Shown: positions 1-5,681 of the stretch, piece after piece
How positions within the stretch are numbered: position 1 is the stretch's first letter
Layout: the number at the start of each line of letters is the position of its first letter
DNA from: a virus
Direction: 5' to 3' (one strand)
IMG/VR virus record: IMGVR_UViG_3300045988_018446
Span: 1-5,681 of that record
DNA length: 5,681 bases
Made by a program: the position numbers and the translations under genes
The notes under the pieces: model-generated
What the model was told of the DNA's origin: nothing
Database searches by the model: none
What the model saw: the letters and a program-made list of their open reading frames with translations, nothing else

Positions 1-77
1 AGTTGGGTATCCTCCACGCTCAATGTTTGCGTCGTTCTCGGACGCTCTGAGGTGCCTTTCCATATATTTATGCCGCC
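1..77. repeat. Terminal direct repeat, copy 1. It is identical to 5605..5681 and marks a circular 5,604-nt genome.
   Basis: A base-by-base comparison shows 1..77 (agttgggtatcc...tttatgccgcc) equals 5605..5681 exactly. An exact end overlap like this is typical of a circular contig closed by an assembler. Confidence 0.95.
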
Positions 78-395
78 TTTGTAGATTTCGCCTGTTTCTG
101 TGTCTTGTGTCGGTACATGGTCATCGTCATAAGTTAGTGTAATAAACCATGTGCTTTCTTTGTCGTATCCGTATGCTTCTAGCTCCATCCGCGTCGCCCA
201 GTCTTTGCGTTTGCGCAGTCTGCACCCGGTACATTGTCCACATGGTATCAACATTACATCTTTGCGGTACATTAAATTTTCGTACGTCATTTTGGTCTTG
301 TGTATCTCGTTAAAAGAGGCGAGTGAGTATACTCGCCCACTCGCCTCTCTGTCATGAGGTACATAAAACCGGATTAGCGGTTTATTGCATCCCAT
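1..395 (-). CDS. VP4: Replication initiator VP4 (HUH superfamily-I Rep), N-terminal segment. The full CDS is 78..395 joined to 4980..5681, giving 339 aa.
   Basis: I translated the minus strand by hand. The ATG is at 393..395 and the nearest upstream in-frame stop is at 405..407. The product reads MGCNKPLIRFYVPHDREASGRVYSLASFNEIHKTKMTYENLMYRKDVMLIPCGQCTGCRLRKRKDWATRMELEAYGYDKESTWFITLTYDDDHVPTQDTETGEIYKGGINIWKGTSERPRTTQT and continues into LSVEDTQLF at 5627. It carries the CxxCxxC motif (222..242) and Rep motif I FITLTYDD (123..146), both typical of gokushovirus VP4. The ATG overlaps the VP2 stop as TAATG. Confidence 0.9.
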   Translation of the reverse strand, partial: MGCNKPLIRFYVPHDREASGRVYSLASFNEIHKTKMTYENLMYRKDVMLIPCGQCTGCRLRKRKDWATRMELEAYGYDKESTWFITLTYDDDHVPTQDTETGEIYKGGINIWKGTSERPRTTQTLSVEDTQ

Positions 396-1240
396 TACTT
401 TAGTTTATTCCTCCAAAATTCTATGTTTTTGTTTCCGACAAAGTCTCTTCCGGGTTTGTATTGGAGCTCGTCTTTGGATGGTTTTCTTCCTGCTCCACCG
501 GTTTTGGGCGTTAGATTGTTCAGGTCGTTGAAGACGTCCTTGAATGCATTAAACGCTTTGTCTGCGCTTGTGTGTGACCAGCTTGTAGCGTCTCCAACTG
601 CTTGTGCCGCGTTGTACCAGTTACTTTCGCTTTTGCTCCATGTGTTGTTGTGGTTTTGACTTACTCCGAGAGCGCTTGCGGTCGCTGCACTGCTGCTTGC
701 GAGGCCCATACTTGCCCCGCTGATAGTTCCCTGACTGCCACCCGGTGTACTTGCTCCGCCTTGCTGGTATGCTAAGATTGGGTTGATGCCGGCTTTGCGC
801 ATATCGTCTACTGCTCTTTGATATGCTGTGTTACTCATCTGCTCTTGCCAAGCTCTGTTTTTGGCTGCTTCCGCGCTGTTGTAGGACATTGCCGCGTTGT
901 TGCTTATCTGGTTATATACACCCTGAGTGATTGCCGCCATGGTGTTATAGCCCATTTGTTCGAACATGCTTTTGCGGTTAAACTTCTGCTGGCTTTGCAT
1001 ATTGCTTTGAATTGCCCCTAGCATACTGTTCCAGTCTTGCAGGTTTTGTTCTCGGTTTACGCCGCTGGCGGCGCTGCTGTAGCCGCCTCCCTGGCTTGAG
1101 CTTTCGTTGTGCTGTTGGCTTCCTCCGTTGCTCTCCATCAGATTCCCGCCCAGGAATTTGTTTATGAGTCCTCCGGCGATTGTTGGGAGTATTTGTTTGC
1201 CGATTCCGAGCAGTGCGCTGCCGATTGCTGCTAACGCCAT
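395..1240 (-). CDS. VP2: Minor capsid / DNA pilot protein VP2 (281 aa)
   Basis: The ATG is at 1238..1240 and the TAA at 395..397. The N-terminus is hydrophobic and Gly-rich (MALAAIGSALLGIGKQILPTIAGGLI). The middle is Q/S/N/G-rich low complexity. The block NTAYQRAVDDMRKAGINPILAY matches what I recognise from gokushovirus VP2 proteins. It sits immediately downstream of VP1. Confidence 0.8.
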   Translation of the reverse strand: MALAAIGSALLGIGKQILPTIAGGLINKFLGGNLMESNGGSQQHNESSSQGGGYSSAASGVNREQNLQDWNSMLGAIQSNMQSQQKFNRKSMFEQMGYNTMAAITQGVYNQISNNAAMSYNSAEAAKNRAWQEQMSNTAYQRAVDDMRKAGINPILAYQQGGASTPGGSQGTISGASMGLASSSAATASALGVSQNHNNTWSKSESNWYNAAQAVGDATSWSHTSADKAFNAFKDVFNDLNNLTPKTGGAGRKPSKDELQYKPGRDFVGNKNIEFWRNKLK

Positions 1241-1248
1241 AATAAAAT

Positions 1249-1271
1249 AGCCCGGGGTTTTGCCCCGGGCT
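1249..1271 (-). terminator. GC-rich hairpin between VP1 and VP2, probably a partial intrinsic terminator or attenuator
   Basis: Positions 1249..1257 (agcccgggg) pair perfectly with 1263..1271 (ccccgggct), giving a 9-bp stem with a 5-nt loop. On the minus-sense RNA the hairpin is followed by AUUUUAUU and then directly by the VP2 AUG. Confidence 0.6.
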
Positions 1272-1285
1272 TCCCCCTTTCCTGT

Positions 1286-2938
1286 TTAATGATGGTCGAC
1301 GAGCCCCGGAATGCTGTACATCGGCATAGGTCTCACGCTGGTGTTATCGATGACCGTGTCCATGATAAATTGAGGCTCGTTGTCTACGGCCAGAGTTCTC
1401 TGAATTTCGGAGTCTCCTTCTTTCATCCATGCCTGGCTTAAGCTCGGCGTTTCCGTGTAGTTGTCGCCGTAGTGCCAGCTGTCCAATGTCCCCGTTGCGT
1501 TCGAACGGAACTTGCCGCTGATGCGGTTAGGTTTCATTCGGTACTCTGCCCAAGCTTCCTGATAACCAAAGGCCTGTTCATCCGTTTTCGTGCCGGTGAG
1601 GTACAGCTCCTTTTTGAGAATCGCTTGCTCTCCCAGATTTGCGAAGACAGGGTAATAGAAATCCAGATTCGTTTTCCGACTCCACATCCGCTCGAGTCCC
1701 TGCTGGTAGGTATGGTCGTGCCGGATGCAGCACACTCCGATAACAAAGCCGTGCTCTTCGAAGCTCTTGGTGAACATACTCCCGTTGTATGGCGTGACGG
1801 ACACTGCTGCCGTGTTACCCTGCGGACTCTCTGCCGTCGTGCCACTGGTCTGGATGACCTGACTCATGTTGATGGTGATGCGTGTACCGCCCAGATACTC
1901 AGGAATTTGTACCGTCTTATCGCTGATTTTGGTGTGGAACAGCGAATAAATCATCTCGCGGTAACGGCTGCCTCCGCGTGCCAGCTGTTCGTAGTATTTT
2001 TGTACTTGAAATGCCTGTCGCAGCTGGTTGATGGTTACTCCGTTTAACTTGTCGAGTCTTGCGCCAAAGTATGCATTTCCGGTGTCTGATGTTCCAACTA
2101 TACCCATCGGCGGCTGATAACCTTGTATTCCGCTGATTGGCCCTACGGCATATAAGCCATTTTTTGGTGTTTCTCTATCCGGTGTTTTGTATGCCAGCAC
2201 CGGTGCATTGCCGCTCAGCGGAATTCTTACCGGTGCCCCCGCTTTCTGCGGAGAAGGCAGTGCGCTGGTGAAGTAGTCGTGGTATTTGTTGACCGGTAAA
2301 GGTCTGCCGCCTGTGTATGCGTTTTGGAGAATATACTCCAAATTCGGTGTTGCTGCGTCCATGCCCTTGGTTTCATCGTCCGTGTAGTTTACGGTTGCGT
2401 CTCCATCGCTGTTGACGGCCGGGTTGTCTACGTTCTGGTCTCTGAACCACTCCTGCCAAATCATGGCGTATGCTCTCATGGGCAGCGCGTTGATAGTGAA
2501 TGCCGTATCTTCTCCCTTGCTTACCTTGGTCGGAATGCCCATGTAGTCAAGGATGCTGCCCTCATAAGGTGCCGGTTTTTCTGCGGTGCCGGTTACTTTG
2601 ACCTGCGGAATGGTGTATTCTTGAGTCTGTGCCCACGGCCCCGTGTCGTTTTCGCCCATGAATCGTTTGAAGTTTTTCCATAGGATTCTGCACGGGACAT
2701 TAAAATAATAAATGTCCATGTGACAGTTATCCATAACCGGGAAGATAGGAGTTGTCATACGTATAATAGCGGCTTGGTCGATACTAAACGTGTCTCCCGG
2801 TAACACCTCGTCCACATAAAATGGGATGAGCTGTCCTGCATTGAGCGTCAGTTTGACATCTTGCCGCCGCTTGAATCGGCTTCGCGTAATGTCCAAGCGC
2901 GGGACTTGGTTAAATCCTGCGTCTTTGTTTCTGTTCAT
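1286..2938 (-). CDS. VP1: Major capsid protein VP1 (550 aa, Microviridae F-type capsid)
   Basis: The N-terminus FNQVPRLDITRSRFKRRQDVKLTLNAGQLIPFYVDEVLPGDTF is the hallmark of the microvirus major capsid N-terminus. The length is typical of Gokushovirinae-type VP1. GGAGG lies 7 nt upstream of the ATG (2936..2938). The ATG overlaps the VP3 stop as ATGA. Confidence 0.95.
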   Translation of the reverse strand: MNRNKDAGFNQVPRLDITRSRFKRRQDVKLTLNAGQLIPFYVDEVLPGDTFSIDQAAIIRMTTPIFPVMDNCHMDIYYFNVPCRILWKNFKRFMGENDTGPWAQTQEYTIPQVKVTGTAEKPAPYEGSILDYMGIPTKVSKGEDTAFTINALPMRAYAMIWQEWFRDQNVDNPAVNSDGDATVNYTDDETKGMDAATPNLEYILQNAYTGGRPLPVNKYHDYFTSALPSPQKAGAPVRIPLSGNAPVLAYKTPDRETPKNGLYAVGPISGIQGYQPPMGIVGTSDTGNAYFGARLDKLNGVTINQLRQAFQVQKYYEQLARGGSRYREMIYSLFHTKISDKTVQIPEYLGGTRITINMSQVIQTSGTTAESPQGNTAAVSVTPYNGSMFTKSFEEHGFVIGVCCIRHDHTYQQGLERMWSRKTNLDFYYPVFANLGEQAILKKELYLTGTKTDEQAFGYQEAWAEYRMKPNRISGKFRSNATGTLDSWHYGDNYTETPSLSQAWMKEGDSEIQRTLAVDNEPQFIMDTVIDNTSVRPMPMYSIPGLVDHH

Positions 2939-3411
2939 TCAGTCGCCTCCGTTTTCGGTTCCTCGGGTTTTTCTTCCTGATAGATTCCCAGATTTTTTGC
3001 CCACTCGACCGTTCCAAACGATGCAATAAATTTGTCGACATCGTTGTCAAATTTGAGCTTTATTTCTTTCGGCACTTCGTCCCAGATTTGCTCTGCTCGC
3101 ATCATGATGTTCTGGAGTTCGGCCAGATTTTGTGGTGCTTCGGCGAAGTCTTGGATGCCGCCCCCGATGTCCGGTTTGATACGTGCTGCAATGTCCGGGT
3201 CGATGCTTGCTTGTCGGATGATGTTTTCTAGCTTGGTTTCCTCGAGATAGCTGTCGATTTCGGCCTGTTGGTCAATGGTCTGGTCGAGCCTCAGCACTTT
3301 TTCGCCTTTTTCATTGCGTTCCCAGAGGTACGTGCGCCTTACGGTTTCCCCGGCCTCGGTTGGTTTTGCTGTGGCGGTCTGCCGCCAGTTACTTACTGAG
3401 CGATACGCCAT
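2935..3411 (-). CDS. VP3: Internal scaffolding protein VP3-like (158 aa from the ATG at 3411; the ORF is open up to a TTG at 3477)
   Basis: The protein is acidic and helical (…IDSYLEETKLENIIRQASIDPD…EQIWDEVPKEIKLKFDNDVDKFIASFG…) and sits directly upstream of VP1, coupled to it. I prefer the ATG at 3409..3411 because AAGGAG lies about 10 nt upstream. The longer track start at 3477 is a TTG with no Shine-Dalgarno (SD) sequence and would overlap the upstream gene by 89 nt. Confidence 0.65.
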   Translation of the reverse strand: MAYRSVSNWRQTATAKPTEAGETVRRTYLWERNEKGEKVLRLDQTIDQQAEIDSYLEETKLENIIRQASIDPDIAARIKPDIGGGIQDFAEAPQNLAELQNIMMRAEQIWDEVPKEIKLKFDNDVDKFIASFGTVEWAKNLGIYQEEKPEEPKTEATE

Positions 3412-3625
3412 CGTAAATGTTCTCCTTTGCCTCGGCGAACTCGCCGGTTTTTTCGTCGAACTTTGCCAGCCTGACAAGCCGGTAGTCGCTCGGCGTCTTG
3501 CTCATCATGTTGTGTTCGTCGGTGAGCGCAATTTTAAAATTACGCTCCGCTACTTTGTCTTCGCGTTCGGTAAAAATGGTGATATAGCCCATCACACAGC
3601 TATCGAAAATTCCGTATACGTTCAT
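3389..3625 (-). CDS. VP5: Small non-structural protein, VP5-like (78 aa)
   Basis: The ATG is at 3623..3625 and is preceded by AAAGAGGAAAAC. The pattern VYGIFDSCVMGY…AERNF…PSDYRLVRLAKFDEKTGEF resembles, from my memory, the conserved gokushovirus ORF5/VP5 pattern (Y/F-x-V/I-F-D … A-x-R-x-F … P-x-D-F/Y … G-x-F-D). This was not verified by a search. Confidence 0.55.
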   Translation of the reverse strand: MNVYGIFDSCVMGYITIFTEREDKVAERNFKIALTDEHNMMSKTPSDYRLVRLAKFDEKTGEFAEAKENIYDGVSLSK

Positions 3626-3635
3626 GTTTTCCTCT

Positions 3636-3734
3636 TTATTTGAACCAGTCTTTGATGATGTTGATTGCGTTAATGACGAGGTAGAACCCCGCTGCGAGAA
3701 ATGCCATAGTCATGCTTGCGAATACAGCGCTCAC
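3636..3734 (-). CDS. Small hydrophobic single-pass membrane peptide (32 aa from the GTG, or 25 aa from the ATG at 3713). It falls below the ORF-track size cut-off.
   Basis: My hand translation gives (V/M)SAVFASMTMAFLAAGFYLVINAINIIKDWFK followed by a stop. The GTG at 3732..3734 overlaps the TGA of the upstream basic ORF as GTGA. The TAA at 3636..3638 lies 10 nt before the VP5-like ATG. The ORF fills an otherwise unexplained gap in a tightly packed one-strand gene string. Confidence 0.45.
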   Translation of the reverse strand: MSAVFASMTMAFLAAGFYLVINAINIIKDWFK

Positions 3735-3850
3735 AGGCGGATTCCCCCTCTCATTGCGCCGCTGCCAAGGTTGATGGCCTTGGTTTTTCGTGCGGTCTTG
3801 TTGTAAATTTTTGCGTCCTTGGATTTGCGGACTTTACTCCTCTTTCCCAT
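3731..3850 (-). CDS. VP8: Small highly basic DNA-binding/packaging protein (39 aa), analogous to phiX174 J and gokushovirus ORF8/VP8. It falls below the ORF-track size cut-off.
   Basis: My hand translation gives MGKRSKVRKSKDAKIYNKTARKTKAINLGSGAMRGGIRL followed by a stop. It has 13 Lys/Arg and 1 acidic residue. As I recall, the C-terminal MRGGIRL is characteristic of small basic proteins in gokushovirus genomes. The ATG at 3848..3850 overlaps the 3' end of the 73-aa ORF by 17 nt, and a GAAGGGAAA purine tract lies upstream. Confidence 0.6.
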   Translation of the reverse strand: MGKRSKVRKSKDAKIYNKTARKTKAINLGSGAMRGGIRL

Positions 3851-4055
3851 GGTTGATTTCCCTTCTGAGGATTTCTACCTCAATTTCTGTCGCTTTTGCT
3901 TTTTTTCTGAAGACCATGTCAAGGTAAAACTTTGCGTCGTCGTACTTTGCGGCCTGTCGTAGCAGTTTGTAAGCGGCGTCGATTTCCTTGTAGGTTCGTG
4001 TCAATTCCTCCATGAGTTTCGTGTCGGTCTGGTCTCTTACGTTCCACGTTTTCAC
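3834..4055 (-). CDS. Hypothetical helical protein (73 aa, GTG start)
   Basis: The ORF is on the coding strand. It is a charged, helical-looking sequence (…LMEELTRTYKEIDAAYKLLRQAAKYDDAKFYLDMVFRKKAKATEIEVEILRREI…). GAGGAG lies 12 nt upstream of the GTG at 4053..4055. I recognise no family for it. Confidence 0.5.
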   Translation of the reverse strand: MKTWNVRDQTDTKLMEELTRTYKEIDAAYKLLRQAAKYDDAKFYLDMVFRKKAKATEIEVEILRREINHGKEE

Positions 4056-4064
4056 CTTGGTTAG

Positions 4065-4211
4065 TTACTCCTCGGGCTTGTTGCCCTCTACTGCGTGATA
4101 AATCTTGTCCAGCATAGCCAAGATTTTGCGGATGTTGTTAAACAGCGCGTCGATTTCCTCGATAGACAGAGCAGACACCTTCTTTTTTAAGTTATTTTGT
4201 ATAAATGGCAT
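4065..4211 (-). CDS. Hypothetical small protein (48 aa). It falls below the ORF-track size cut-off.
   Basis: My hand translation gives MPFIQNNLKKKVSALSIEEIDALFNNIRKILAMLDKIYHAVEGNKPEE followed by a stop. The ATG at 4209..4211 is the first start after an in-frame TAG. Only a weak GGAAAG lies upstream. The stop is 9 nt before the next gene start. Support comes only from strand, packing and a non-random helical sequence. Confidence 0.4.
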   Translation of the reverse strand: MPFIQNNLKKKVSALSIEEIDALFNNIRKILAMLDKIYHAVEGNKPEE

Positions 4212-4254
4212 TGTAAAACAGCACTTTCCGCTGTCTAACTATTTATGTTGTATC

Positions 4255-4283
4255 AAAAAAAACAGGGCTTGTCAAGCCCTGTT
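4255..4283 (-). terminator. Rho-independent terminator on the minus strand, downstream of the Cys-rich ORF
   Basis: Positions 4261..4270 (aacagggctt) pair perfectly with 4274..4283 (aagccctgtt) around a 3-nt loop. On the minus-sense RNA the GC-rich stem is followed by a run of 8 U (plus-strand A run at 4255..4262). The hairpin starts 6 nt after the TAA at 4290..4292. Confidence 0.8.
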
Positions 4284-4289
4284 CTGGAA

Positions 4290-4466
4290 TTATTTTTCTC
4301 TTTTGTTTAGTTCGTCTTTTGCTAGCGCGTGGATGTATTCGCAACGGTAGCTTATGTCGCTACATGGGCATTTTTCGCAATCGTAGTTGCAGTGCTTGAA
4401 TTTGTAGTCCATCCATCTCAAGGTCTCTGTGTCAAGGTCTTTGTACTTTGCTCTTAAAGTTTCCAT
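4290..4466 (-). CDS. Small Cys-rich protein (58 aa), a putative metal-binding protein of unknown function. It falls below the ORF-track size cut-off.
   Basis: My hand translation gives METLRAKYKDLDTETLRWMDYKFKHCNYDCEKCPCSDISYRCEYIHALAKDELNKREK followed by a stop. The cysteine pattern is H-C-x3-C-x2-C-x-C-x6-C-x3-H. The ATG at 4464..4466 is preceded by AAGGGGA with about 8 nt spacing. A consensus promoter lies upstream and a terminator downstream. Confidence 0.65.
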   Translation of the reverse strand: METLRAKYKDLDTETLRWMDYKFKHCNYDCEKCPCSDISYRCEYIHALAKDELNKREK

Positions 4467-4492
4467 AGTCTTTATCCCCTTTCTTTAATTGG

Positions 4493-4521
4493 ATTATACC
4501 ACAACTTTGCTTATTTGTCAA
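4493..4521 (-). promoter_or_regulatory. Consensus sigma70-type promoter with an extended -10 element
   Basis: The minus-sense sequence reads ctcTTGACAaataagcaaagttgTGgTATAATcc. The -35 TTGACA is at 4516..4521 and the -10 TATAAT at 4493..4498. The spacer is exactly 17 nt and TGn lies immediately upstream of the -10. An A/T-rich tract sits upstream of the -35. The Cys-rich ORF's ATG is about 27 nt downstream of the -10. Confidence 0.8.
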
Positions 4522-4644
4522 GAGGTTTTTGGAAAAAAGTTTAGATGCACTATGCCTTGAATGTCATGCGGTAGGCGCGGTGCGCCGTGCGAAGAGCATG
4601 ACGAGACCTTCCGGTTTCGCTCGCCGGACGGCCTTTAATTCGAT

Positions 4645-4653
4645 TTTTCCACA
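4645..4653 (+). promoter_or_regulatory. DnaA-box match TTTTCCACA (fits the relaxed consensus TTWTNCACA)
   Basis: This is a direct read of the sequence. It differs by one base from the canonical TTATCCACA. It has the same orientation as the other two boxes and overlaps the first CACTTTCAA repeat. Confidence 0.5.
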
Positions 4654-4671
4654 CTTTCAACACTTTCAACA
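4652..4671 (+). repeat. Tandem CACTTTCAA x2 (+CA). This is iteron pair 1, containing TTCAACA at 4656..4662 and 4665..4671.
   Basis: This is a direct read: cactttcaa|cactttcaa|ca. The 11-mer CACTTTCAACA recurs at 4717..4727. Confidence 0.85.
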
Positions 4672-4673
4672 GG

Positions 4674-4682
4674 TTTTCCACG
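4674..4682 (+). promoter_or_regulatory. DnaA-box-like TTTTCCACG (two mismatches to TTATCCACA)
   Basis: This is a direct read. It has the same orientation as the box at 4645 and lies 29 nt downstream of it. Confidence 0.35.
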
Positions 4683-4688
4683 AAAAGT

Positions 4689-4708
4689 TGCACAAATGGT
4701 TTTGTGCA
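4689..4708. other. Perfect 8-bp inverted repeat or hairpin, TGCACAAA-tggt-TTTGTGCA
   Basis: Positions 4689..4696 are the reverse complement of 4701..4708, with a 4-nt loop. It lies between the second and third DnaA-box matches. Confidence 0.7.
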
Positions 4709-4716
4709 TATTGCTA

Positions 4717-4736
4717 CACTTTCAACAATTCAACAA
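4717..4736 (+). repeat. Iteron pair 2: CACTTTCAACA followed by a tandem TTCAACAA (TTCAACA at 4721..4727 and 4729..4735)
   Basis: This is a direct read. The 10-mer CAACAAGTTA (4731..4740) overlaps this pair and runs into the perfect DnaA box. The same 10-mer is repeated at 4840..4849. Confidence 0.85.
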
Positions 4737-4737
4737 G

Positions 4738-4746
4738 TTATCCACA
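4738..4746 (+). promoter_or_regulatory. Perfect DnaA box TTATCCACA
   Basis: This is an exact 9/9 match to the canonical high-affinity DnaA box and the only perfect copy in the window. It lies in the non-coding region. Confidence 0.6.
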
Positions 4747-4805
4747 AAAGTATCAACATCAAAATAATCCAAAAAATATCGTTCTAAGGATAAAAATTCA
4801 TGGTA

Positions 4806-4820
4806 TTCAACATTTCAACA
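4806..4820 (+). repeat. Iteron pair 3: TTCAACA at 4806..4812 and 4814..4820
   Basis: This is a direct read (attcaacatttcaaca). All six TTCAACA copies share one orientation and occur as pairs spaced 8 to 9 nt apart. Confidence 0.8.
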
Positions 4821-4824
4821 CTCC

Positions 4825-4869
4825 CTACTATTACGACTACAACAAGTTAATAATAAATAATAATAATAT
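4825..4869. repeat. Trinucleotide-periodic tract (CTA CTA TTA CGA CTA CAA CAA) running into a pure A/T block (TAA)3-A-(TAA)3-TAT. This is a candidate DNA-unwinding element.
   Basis: This is a direct read. Positions 4825..4845 are seven triplets that all end in A. Positions 4847..4869 are 23 consecutive A/T bases built from TAA units. Confidence 0.7.
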
Positions 4870-4910
4870 CACGCACGTGCGTGCGCGATTACGTGCGCGC
4901 GCGTGCGTGT
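4870..4910. repeat. Alternating purine-pyrimidine GC-rich tract that is both Z-DNA-prone and an imperfect palindrome forming an 18-bp hairpin
   Basis: Positions 4870..4887 (18 nt) and 4890..4910 (21 nt) alternate Py/Pu perfectly, with one phase break at 4888..4889. Positions 4870..4887 pair with 4892..4909 as 15 Watson-Crick pairs plus 3 G-T pairs on the plus strand, with loop atta. ACGCACGTGCGT (4871..4882) is a perfect 12-nt palindrome. Confidence 0.85.
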
Positions 4911-4914
4911 CAAT

Positions 4915-4967
4915 ATGAAATAAAATACTCAGCCAAGTATATATACTTGATAGTTACTTGGCTGAGT
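4915..4967 (-). terminator. Hairpin plus U-rich tail 12 nt downstream of the VP4 stop. It is the likely terminator of the long minus-strand operon.
   Basis: Positions 4927..4939 (actcagccaagta) pair perfectly with 4955..4967 (tacttggctgagt), giving a 13-bp stem and a 15-nt loop. On the minus-sense RNA the hairpin is followed by AUUUUAUUUCAU. Nested inside is a perfect 16-nt palindrome, caagtatatatacttg (4934..4949), which offers an alternative fold. Confidence 0.6.
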
Positions 4968-4979
4968 GACACCAAAGTG

Positions 4980-5681
4980 TCAAAATACACCTTTGGCTTT
5001 GCTCATCTTCTTGGACATGGATGCTTCCTTGTCCTTTAGCTGCTCTGCGTATGACTTATCTGTTTCCGCGTTTCTTTCGATTAGGGACGCAATGGCTTTT
5101 TCTTGCCGATACTGTTTGATTCTCCACGCTTTTTCAGGGTTCTCCGCTTCCAGTTTTCGCCAGTAGTATTCCGGTATGGCTGCTCTCTTGCCGTTGGTAA
5201 GCTGTATGTATCCCTGTTGCCAGAGTCGCTCTTGATGGTCTTGAAACCATTGGTCTCCGAGTCCCGGCTTTCGGCTCATTGTGCAAAATGGAGGTATTAA
5301 ACCCATTTTTTGGTAACGCTTTTTGTCGTTGCCGTATAGTTTCTTTGTCACGTACCCTGCAACATAATTATATGTCTCCGGTGTTGCCTGTGCTATGTCA
5401 ACTGCACCTTGTCCCCAGATTTTGACCAGCTTATCACTTGTGTAGTGGCCGTGTCTGGATAGCTTGTGTATAGGTTTTAAGTCGTCAGGATGCCATCCGT
5501 ATAGTATCATGTGATAGTGTGGTCTCGCTGTGTTGTCTCCATACTCTCCGGCTAAAAAGTATCTCAGTGGCTCTTTGACGGCCTTTCTTAGCCTTTTAAT
5601 AAAGAGTTGGGTATCCTCCACGCTCAATGTTTGCGTCGTTCTCGGACGCTCTGAGGTGCCTTTCCATATATTTATGCCGCC
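4980..5681 (-). CDS. VP4: Replication initiator VP4, C-terminal segment (233 aa plus stop). It continues across the circular junction.
   Basis: The frame stays open from 5681 down to the TGA at 4980..4982. The HUH motif PHYHMILYG has its His codons at 5517..5519 and 5511..5513. The two-tyrosine motif YVAGYVTKK has Tyr codons at 5364..5366 and 5352..5354, with the YxxxY spacing seen in phiX174 protein A. The track's start at 5627 is an internal TTG (Leu). Confidence 0.9.
   Translation of the reverse strand, partial: GGINIWKGTSERPRTTQTLSVEDTQLFIKRLRKAVKEPLRYFLAGEYGDNTARPHYHMILYGWHPDDLKPIHKLSRHGHYTSDKLVKIWGQGAVDIAQATPETYNYVAGYVTKKLYGNDKKRYQKMGLIPPFCTMSRKPGLGDQWFQDHQERLWQQGYIQLTNGKRAAIPEYYWRKLEAENPEKAWRIKQYRQEKAIASLIERNAETDKSYAEQLKDKEASMSKKMSKAKGVF
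5605..5681. repeat. Terminal direct repeat, copy 2. This is redundant sequence and should be trimmed to circularise.
   Basis: It is identical to 1..77. The Rep reading frame continues in frame from 5681 into position 78. Confidence 0.95.

Follow-up and report, generated by a model that had tools for sequence, protein, structure and literature searches.

A predicted oriC2-type DnaA origin cassette in gut gokushoviruses

The stretch of viral DNA considered here (positions 1 to 5,681 of IMG/VR virus record IMGVR_UViG_3300045988_018446; hereafter the window, 5,681 nucleotides (nt) in full) carries a gokushovirus, a single-stranded DNA (ssDNA) phage with one large non-coding region, 4467-4979, between the end of its Rep gene and a group of small open reading frames (ORFs). 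Within this region, positions 4645-4869 appear to form an oriC2-type origin cassette for the bacterial initiator DnaA, in which two arrays of direct DnaA boxes would feed a basal unwinding system. Judging from the architecture, the match to real bacterial origins and the pattern of constraint among relatives, we think it very probable that DnaA binds the cassette and opens the duplex at 4825-4869. That this serves theta-type replication of the double-stranded replicative form (RF) by host machinery is a proposal on which we are evenly divided. An initial annotation of the window had described a chromosomal-origin-like DnaA module in this region. That description is borne out, in that the box-box-spacer-trio pattern retrieves dnaA/dnaN origins from bacterial genomes and its geometry is conserved in at least 160 microviruses.

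Anatomy of the cassette

Read along the plus strand, the cassette comprises about 11 direct DnaA-box-like 9-mers (4645-4820), a 4-nt spacer, five DnaA-trio triplets and the longest A/T run in the genome. The boxes, iterons, trio-like tract and A/T block of the initial annotation are all present where it had placed them. The parts and their flanks are as follows.

4645..4693, plus strand: DnaA-box array 1, with TTTTCCACA at 4645-4653, CTTTCAACA at 4654 and again at 4663, TTTTCCACG at 4674-4682 and a weak AGTTGCACA at 4685
4689..4708, no strand assigned: palindrome TGCACAAA-tggt-TTTGTGCA between the arrays, its right arm approximating an inverted box (TGTGCATAT, 7/9)
4719..4758, plus strand: DnaA-box array 2, with CTTTCAACA at 4719, AATTCAACA at 4727, a perfect TTATCCACA at 4738-4746 and GTATCAACA at 4750
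4759..4803, no strand assigned: conserved 45-nt spacer containing the inverted repeat TATC-gttctaag-GATA (4777-4792)
4804-4812 and 4812-4820, plus strand: tandem trio-proximal DnaA boxes TATTCAACA and ATTTCAACA, cores 8 nt apart
4821..4824, no strand assigned: 4-nt spacer CTCC from the second box to the first trio
4825..4839, minus strand (the strand that DnaA would bind): DnaA-trio tract, top strand CTA CTA TTA CGA CTA
4837..4849, no strand assigned: phage-specific 13-mer CTACAACAAGTTA, overlapping the last trio
4847..4869, no strand assigned: 23-nt A/T-only block, a putative DNA unwinding element, the longest A/T run and GC minimum of the genome
4863..4916, no strand assigned: GC-rich inverted repeat of alternating purines and pyrimidines (CG/CA repeats), flanking the cassette (-16.1 kcal/mol, z = -1.8)
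4555..4633, no strand assigned: two GC-rich hairpins on the opposite flank (z = -1.2), conserved in relatives

The boxes of array 1 share the direct orientation, with start-to-start distances of 9, 9, 11 and 11 nt, and the columns of this array are 90-100% conserved in 100 relatives. The heptamer TTCAACA occurs at 4656, 4665, 4721, 4729, 4806 and 4814, always on the plus strand and nowhere else in the genome; none of 200 shuffled sequences reached six copies (shuffle mean 1.0), so the six same-orientation copies first described stand well above chance. A broader consensus, TTWTCMACA with at most one mismatch, has 18 matches in the genome against 5.3 +/- 2.2 expected (0/200 shuffles), nine of which lie within the 176 nt of 4645-4820, all on the plus strand. 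The strict Escherichia coli box, TTATCCACA with at most one mismatch, is found four times, and because 5 of 200 shuffles reach that number, this count alone is only marginally significant. The comparison with shuffled sequence suggested in the initial annotation thus gives enrichment for TTCAACA, for TTWTCMACA and for the A/T run (at least 23 nt in 1 of 1000 shuffles), and a marginal result for the strict box. As for the three boxes originally listed, those at 4645, 4674 and 4738 all exist and the last is perfect, but TTTTCCACG at 4674 matches at only 7/9 positions; the accompanying statement that coding DNA holds no other match of 8/9 or better does not hold, there being two more 8/9 matches to TTATCCACA, at 234 and 2727.

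The tandem boxes TATTCAACA and ATTTCAACA correspond to DnaA-boxes #6 and #7 in the basal unwinding system of bacteria. On the minus strand, which is the viral and coding strand, the trio tract reads 3'-GAT GAT AAT GCT GAT-5', in agreement with the trio-like tract that had been read at 4825-4839 after CTCC. An earlier concern, that the perfect box lies 78 nt from the trios, is resolved by the TTCAACA pair, which sits 4 nt from the first trio.

When the module is folded as ssDNA, the palindrome at 4689-4708 is its sole stable element. Phages of clade 2 have another hairpin (TTCGTCA-ttt-TGACGAA) a few bases downstream of the palindrome position, and bacterial oriC2 sites have an inverted box at the equivalent place. 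The inverted repeat at 4777-4792 may be a site for a bending or accessory protein; in clade 2 an inverted repeat of other sequence (e.g. TTACGC-ttta-GCGTAA) occupies the equivalent position. Tracts akin to 4863-4916 are found in relatives, and the tract itself might adopt a cruciform, a Z-DNA or an ssDNA-hairpin conformation. The stability of the GC-rich flanking hairpins is not significantly above that of composition-matched shuffles and, given this result, we make no claim for them beyond naming the flanks as candidates for the complementary-strand origin.

Match to bacterial chromosome origins

The exact phage pattern TCAACANNTCAACANNNNCTACTAYTA, 27 nt long and made of a pair of TCAACA cores offset by 8 nt, a 4-nt spacer and CTACTAYTA, was searched on both strands of one genome per bacterial species (596 Gb), where about 0.5 matches would be expected by chance (our estimate, with equal base frequencies assumed). 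Matches were returned from at least 120 bacterial species. Among the 120 matches listed, to which the counts in this paragraph refer, 114 loci are oriented as in oriC and adjoin dnaA and/or dnaN: 95 lie between the two genes, reading from dnaA towards dnaN, and in 19 the fetched piece includes just one of them, correctly placed and oriented. The remaining 6 are elsewhere, three of them in Porphyromonas. The identity of DnaA and DnaN was confirmed by Pfam in two loci. Most of the matches come from Clostridia (Clostridium, Oscillospiraceae, Ruminococcus, Lachnospiraceae), joined by Sporomusa and a few others, and one uncultured Clostridia genome has 29 nt identical to the window. The three Porphyromonas loci have the box-box-spacer-trio unit; neither dnaA nor dnaN was detected within the 8-kb piece of each.

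The resemblance extends beyond the pattern searched for. The oriC2 sites of Oscillospiraceae and Eubacteriales have long upstream arrays of TTTTCAACA with 9- and 11-nt spacing, an occasional TCCACA and an inverted box, much like the phage arrays, and A/T-rich DNA is found at the corresponding position in bacterial oriC2 sites. These matches of pattern and array in bacterial origins imply that origins of Oscillospiraceae, Ruminococcus and Clostridium normally have TTCAACA as their box core and that it is no peculiarity of the phage. The initial annotation had taken TTCAACA for either a low-affinity DnaA site or an iteron for the phage Rep; the DnaA box survives from this, the Rep iteron does not, and as the standard core of these groups it is not merely a weak site. 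Its suggestion of a captured host oriC fragment is likewise half right: motifs and architecture support a sequence derived from an origin, though not one copied recently from any known genome.

Among the matches listed, most with the 'TT' inter-box form belong to Oscillospiraceae, Ruminococcus and Eubacteriales, the others to some Clostridium species, Acidobacteria and one Syntrophomonadaceae. As far as motifs can indicate, these phages probably infect gut Clostridia of the Oscillospiraceae/Ruminococcus type; because no microvirus contig was seen inside a bacterial assembly among the matches listed in the genome scan, the host is drawn from motif type only. A consensus promoter with an extended -10 and, directly upstream of the first ORF's start codon, a stretch rich in purines (AAAGGGGA, identified by eye) would fit a Firmicutes host.

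The DnaA protein of one Oscillospiraceae locus (L130, 3082-4446) differs from that of a Clostridium locus (L171) at four of the six base-contacting positions given in PMC7561715, with T, N, S and I as the equivalents of P423, D433, T435 and H439. Nearly all boxes in the dnaA-dnaN regions of L130 and of an Oscillospiraceae metagenome-assembled genome (L169) are of the TCAACA type. These observations suggest that box preference has shifted in the group to which the hosts probably belong.

Comparison with the basal unwinding system

As published, the basal unwinding system begins with one or two DnaA boxes; a short spacer separates these from three or more trios (3'-GAT-5'), beyond which lies the unwinding region, and three trios were the minimum for origin activity in Bacillus subtilis (PMC8287927). 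In function it is defined by strand separation that depends on DnaA and ATP and needs boxes as well as trios (PMC8287927). The supplementary tables of that paper give the units TTATCAACA-AATCCACA-CTCC-CTACTACTATTAC for Clostridium acetobutylicum, TTATTAACA-TATCAACA-AGCC-(CTA)n for C. botulinum and TTATCCACC-AATCCACA-GCAC-CTACTACTATTACTA for Staphylococcus aureus (PMC8287927), and the Enterococcus faecalis unit, TTTTCCACA-G-AATCAACA-TGCC-CTATTAC, was tested in a strand-separation assay (PMC8287927). The trio strand of B. subtilis is 5'-CTACTATTACTTCTACTA-3' (PMC10201434), which begins CTACTATTAC, and that of C. difficile is CACCTACTACTATTACTACTA (PMC7561715), which begins CTACTACTATTAC.

The phage unit, TATTCAACA-TTTCAACA-CTCC-CTACTATTACGACTA, has the 8-nt core offset, the 4-nt spacer and the orientation of the published units. 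Its proximal-box geometry is that of the S. aureus, Listeria monocytogenes, E. faecalis and C. acetobutylicum units (PMC8287927), the spacer CTCC is common to the phage and C. acetobutylicum, and the first ten trio bases of B. subtilis are identical to those of the phage, CTACTATTAC being the start of both tracts. A second tandem box, for which up to four mismatches are allowed, is present at 4804-4812 / 4812-4820, and the short spacer, expected to be about 4 bp and usually G+C-rich, is CTCC. At least three consecutive trios with a central A are called for, and the phage has 3'-GAT GAT AAT-5', followed by GCT (a deviation) and then GAT, with the 23-nt run as the A/T-rich region beyond. Against a quoted oriC criterion of at least three DnaA boxes within about 100 bp (PMC7561715), nine host-type boxes (at most one mismatch) are found in 176 nt. 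Location gives the opposite answer: an oriC is usually marked by dnaA/dnaN and a switch in GC skew, and the cassette lies between Rep and the small ORFs on a phage of 5,604 nt. Judged by sequence, then, the cassette has the features of a basal unwinding system except, in this genome, the strict E. coli box, and it is not a chromosomal origin by location.

With clostridial oriC2 and B. subtilis incC, the phage cassette shares tandem direct boxes, a 4-nt spacer, at least three trios, A/T-rich DNA and upstream arrays. Unlike a bacterial oriC, it has no dnaA or dnaN nearby, is accompanied by the 13-mer and the GC-rich flanks, occurs in either orientation and seems to move between phages.

Conservation and distribution among phages

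The cassette is present in at least 160 gut microvirus contigs and in 42 GenBank microvirus records, obtained from human, pig, monkey, dog, mink, raccoon and rhesus sources, of which 0/42 have it annotated. A scan of IMG/VR with part of the upstream module, TTCAACANGTTNTCCACNAAA, gave 109 loci, about 105 of them microvirus-sized, and a scan with a generalised unwinding unit gave at least 120 loci, almost all microviruses among the matches listed. The unwinding unit occurs in 101 of 105 loci that were chosen independently of it, with a 4-nt spacer in 98 of the 101, and in 56 of 61 relatives picked by VP1 similarity alone. The initial annotation had named conservation in related microviruses as a check, and boxes and unwinding unit are indeed kept. 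The five remaining VP1 relatives are incomplete linear contigs, of which three (L306, L312 and L321) break at or inside the cassette and two (L308 and L330) are without this intergenic region; for this reason the idea that close relatives lack the cassette was rejected. Linear microvirus contigs such as the first three tend to end at or inside the cassette, and its repeats, or its being common to co-occurring phages, probably break metagenome assemblies here. This implies that surveys of incomplete contigs undercount it.

The 146 unique cassettes define which parts vary. The spacer is 4 nt long in all 146 and has 27 different sequences, the box variants are limited to TCAACA and TCCACA types, and in the trio tract triplets 1-3 and 5 never vary and triplet 4 does (C[GT]N), with most relatives having GAT three times. 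Such constraint is what would be expected of a protein that measures distance from the box and reads triplets on one strand. The 13-mer CTACAACAAGTTA is exact in 107 of the 146, and about 140 keep either the exact form or a variant with CTACAACAA; it is absent from the 120 bacterial sites listed and from two distant microviruses described below.

The module at 4640-4850 (211 nt) aligns over about 205 nt with 95-97% identity in eight other phages (L002, L008, L010, L040, L062, L078, L082 and L102), which are only about 50% identical to the window phage in VP1 and about 45% in VP2 and in Rep. Cassette identity of 95-97% amid protein identity of about 45-50% implies cassette exchange, very strong constraint, or both. 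The lineage of Rep is not tracked by cassette type. The genomes themselves are mosaic; L002, for instance, is 91% identical to this phage in VP3 and 88% in VP5, and only 50% in VP1.

In four genomes (L232, L247, L265 and L276), the entire cassette, from the first box to the A/T block and with the 13-mer, has the reverse orientation with respect to the genes; the GC-rich flanks on either side stay where they are. The flanks, which are partly palindromic, may be recombination endpoints. This natural inversion implies that the cassette is a self-contained unit, able to act on duplex DNA whichever way it faces.

Two distant 4.7-kb microviruses (L271 and L272; 38% identical in VP1 and 29% in Rep) have, downstream of Rep and in gene orientation, four to five perfect TTATCCACA boxes at intervals of about 20 nt, and after these TTTCCACATTTCCACA-ATGC-(CTA)5-6 and A/T-rich DNA. 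By its sequence this is a separate version of the same design with canonical boxes. The module in these two phages is followed by a consensus-like promoter. No unwinding-system-like unit was found in phiX174, phiMH2K or Chp2, and SpV4 gave a weak, chance-like match only. At blastn sensitivity, no similar cassette was found among natural plasmids in PLSDB. The exact box-box-spacer-trio unit also occurs in larger contigs that have no microvirus capsid gene (L260 at 1203-1229, L242, L253, L268, L281, L282, L291 and L293), from which it follows that other phages may carry such units. In L260 it is intergenic among small ORFs; no dnaA or dnaN was seen on the fetched pieces.

Proposed function and alternatives

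The mechanism that we rank first would begin with conversion of the packaged ssDNA into double-stranded RF by host enzymes. Host DnaA-ATP would then bind the boxes, a DnaA oligomer would grow from the trio-proximal pair onto the 3'-GAT-5' triplets, and the A/T block would open as a result. Loading of the host helicase (DnaD/DnaB/DnaI-type in Firmicutes) would lead to theta replication of the RF without the phage HUH Rep, so that the RF would be amplified, or maintained in growing cells. This proposal is placed first because a complete unwinding unit is conserved and orientation-free and because the phage has no duplex initiator: searches of PHROGs and Pfam gave no theta initiator and no DnaA-related protein encoded by the phage, the sole replication protein being the HUH Rep. 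With no theta initiator of the phage's own, any duplex origin must use that of the host.

Several points weigh against theta replication, or against an origin-like reading of the cassette altogether. We know of no need for a duplex origin in rolling-circle phages. Plasmids based on B. subtilis oriC depend on the two box clusters together, are poor replicators and show incompatibility with the chromosome, and no partition function is found in the phage. The phage-specific 13-mer CTACAACAAGTTA is not accounted for by a theta-origin model, the fourth triplet (CGA) is missing the central A of a trio, and in clade-2 phages the trios are followed by only about 12 nt of pure A/T. The IMG/VR contigs come mostly from one dataset (3300045988), although the GenBank records from several animals show the cassette too. 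Finally, the published search requires a proximal box with at most two mismatches to TTATCCACA, or a known species-specific motif, 0-16 bp from the trios (PMC8287927); TATTCAACA and ATTTCAACA each have three mismatches and fail that program unless a lineage-specific box is accepted. Both are one mismatch from TTWTCMACA, the form at this position in the 114 dnaA/dnaN-adjoining origins among the matches listed, and the clade-2 phages have TTTTCCACA, with one mismatch, as proximal box.

Of the other explanations, the one that survives best, though we think it unlikely, is that the cassette is a DnaA sink serving host takeover or the sensing of host state, in which about 11 boxes on a multicopy RF would sequester DnaA-ATP and block host initiation, and no phage replication would start there. 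Such a sink would be akin to datA or to the DnaA-box clusters and 'inc' regions of B. subtilis. The arrays are dense enough for this, including as they do the perfect TTATCCACA and strong TTTTCCACA sites, orientation independence suits a sink as well as it does an origin, and from established DnaA biology titration is to be expected as a side effect of any box-rich multicopy DNA. However, a sink has no need of trios, of an exact 4-nt spacer or of an adjacent A/T block, which are the most invariant parts of the cassette, and L271 and L272 also have a complete unwinding unit beyond their boxes. Both theta replication or carriage of the RF and datA-like titration of DnaA had been raised in the initial annotation; we rank the former above the latter because trios and a fixed 4-nt spacer, needless for a pure sink, are conserved.

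Somewhat less probable again is that opening by DnaA assists rolling-circle replication, the melted A/T block either exposing ssDNA for the nick by the HUH Rep or loading helicase for a Rep-primed fork. HUH nucleases cut only ssDNA and the Rep gene adjoins the cassette. Moreover, the 13-mer on the viral strand reads TAACTTGTTGTAG, and its AACTTG is common to the phiX174 origin, CAACTTG^ATATTAATAAC; by our estimate, however, a hexamer match in a 513-nt region has a chance of about 1 in 4. The four genomes with cassette and 13-mer inverted tell against the idea, as a nick on the complementary strand could not yield viral-strand circles, and the same cassette is found with Reps that are 45% identical. 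Because the block is inverted relative to the genes in those four genomes, CTACAACAAGTTA was set aside as the Rep nick site.

It is very improbable that the repeats are iterons for a phage protein (Rep/VP4, VP5 or the product of a small ORF) and only resemble DnaA sites. Six TTCAACA in tandem pairs do look like iterons, one small ORF (ORF73) co-occurs with the cassette in 137 loci, and VP5 matches a family annotated as DNA-binding. Yet the same repeats, spacing, spacer and trios stand beside dnaA/dnaN in 114 bacterial species among the matches listed, which have no such phage protein, the cassette is common to phages with very different Rep, VP5 and small ORFs, and L271 and L272 have canonical TTATCCACA boxes.

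Least probable of all is a complementary-strand origin on the packaged ssDNA with ABC-primosome-type priming at a box-bearing hairpin, as at the R6K A site and as the initial annotation had considered first: every ssDNA phage needs host-specific complementary-strand priming and the perfect box does pair imperfectly with 4700-4710, but a box position is mismatched in that pairing, which has a perfect 8-bp hairpin as competitor and is not seen in clade 2, the module as ssDNA is less structured than shuffled controls (z = +0.76), the boxes are all direct repeats, the opposite cassette strand is packaged in the inverted lineage, and the GC-rich flanking hairpins, whose orientation is kept, are better candidates.

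Theta replication of the RF, if it takes place, could be part of a larger picture, in which gut gokushoviruses are natural oriC minichromosomes whose RF is replicated by DnaA only, so that they are carried like plasmids in step with the host cell cycle, and whose cassette, matched to the host and exchangeable, moves between phages and marks or limits host range. On this view TCAACA boxes would suit Oscillospiraceae-type hosts, and the other lineage would have TTATCCACA boxes instead. We offer this picture tentatively and regard it, taken whole, as rather doubtful.

Genome context

The first 77 bases of the window recur at its end (1-77 = 5605-5681) as a terminal direct repeat, and the window is for this reason a complete circular genome of 5,604 nt. 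It has the standard gokushovirus gene set and shares about 88% identity with records of gut gokushoviruses from humans and animals. All genes of the phage are on the minus strand; as the packaged strand of Microviridae has the sense of mRNA, the viral strand is the minus strand of the window. The genes and the regulatory elements outside the cassette are as follows.

about 393 to 1, then 5604 to 4980 (across the circle junction), minus strand: Rep/VP4, an HUH Rep (phrog_942)
3625-3389, minus strand: VP5, matching a family annotated as DNA-binding
3477-2935, minus strand: VP3-like protein
2938-1286, minus strand: VP1
1240-395, minus strand: VP2
4521 to 4493, minus strand: sigma-70 promoter TTGACA-17-TGnTATAAT with extended -10, 12/12 consensus matches, driving the small ORFs and outside the cassette
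4927-4967, minus strand: terminator of the Rep gene, a hairpin and T-run (z = -6.8), given for context only

The three small ORFs have no family match in PHROGs or Pfam. One of them, ORF73 (3834-4055, minus strand), would encode a small helical protein and is present in clade 2 and in the inverted lineage and not in L271 or L272, and another, ORF58 (4290-4466), is found in 13 loci only. Regulation by DnaA of the nearby consensus promoter was considered and rejected, since the cassette is at least 120 nt away and its opposite end faces the promoter in the inverted lineage. No tRNAs were found in the window, and a search of Rfam gave a single chance-level match (E = 0.38).

Relation to known systems

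Replication of microviruses such as phiX174 and G4 relies in textbook accounts on a phage HUH nuclease and host priming systems, with no role for DnaA. The viral-strand origin of phiX174, a member of the same family, lies inside gene A and is cut by a phage protein, unlike the non-coding cassette described here; the AACTTG of its nick region, also present in the 13-mer, is on the complementary strand in four genomes. In the iteron origins of plasmids and phage-plasmids (pSC101, F, P1, R6K, RK2), host DnaA is recruited through boxes beside an A/T-rich region as a helper, and the replicon's own Rep initiator binds the iterons. The gokushovirus has no such initiator gene, and its repeats are host-type DnaA boxes with trios. 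Clusters that titrate DnaA, such as datA, are dense in boxes and lie outside oriC, as does the phage cassette, but they are without a trio tract or unwinding element, which here are present and are the most conserved parts. In the ABC-primosome A site of R6K and pBR322, a DnaA box lies inside a hairpin stem on ssDNA, and the viral-strand fold of the cassette has no such box-in-stem hairpin. Artificial oriC minichromosomes and plasmids are small laboratory circles whose sole duplex origin is a chromosomal-type DnaA origin; the phage would be their counterpart in nature, with a rolling-circle Rep in addition.

No literature linking DnaA or DnaA-trios with Microviridae or gokushoviruses was found in a search that left subscription-only papers outside. 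The basal unwinding system itself is known; what would be new is a chromosomal-type DnaA origin module on a rolling-circle ssDNA phage, together with phage-specific additions.

Implications

The conservation of a complete unwinding module implies a second mechanism, of replication or of host control, that depends on the host initiator, in a group that includes some of the most abundant human-associated ssDNA phages. Should theta replication take place, these phages would be natural replicons on a borrowed oriC, which could explain long-term carriage, and the minichromosome picture, if true, would help explain how 'lytic' microviruses persist in the gut for years. Box type and unwinding-unit sequence may help to predict the hosts of uncultured microviruses. 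The cassette is also a ready-made candidate for a minimal origin in Oscillospiraceae and Ruminococcus, groups in which genetic manipulation is difficult. For the study of DnaA, more than 140 natural variants map what the unwinding unit tolerates, the sequence of the spacer and the fourth triplet being free, and the length of the spacer and the first three trios fixed.

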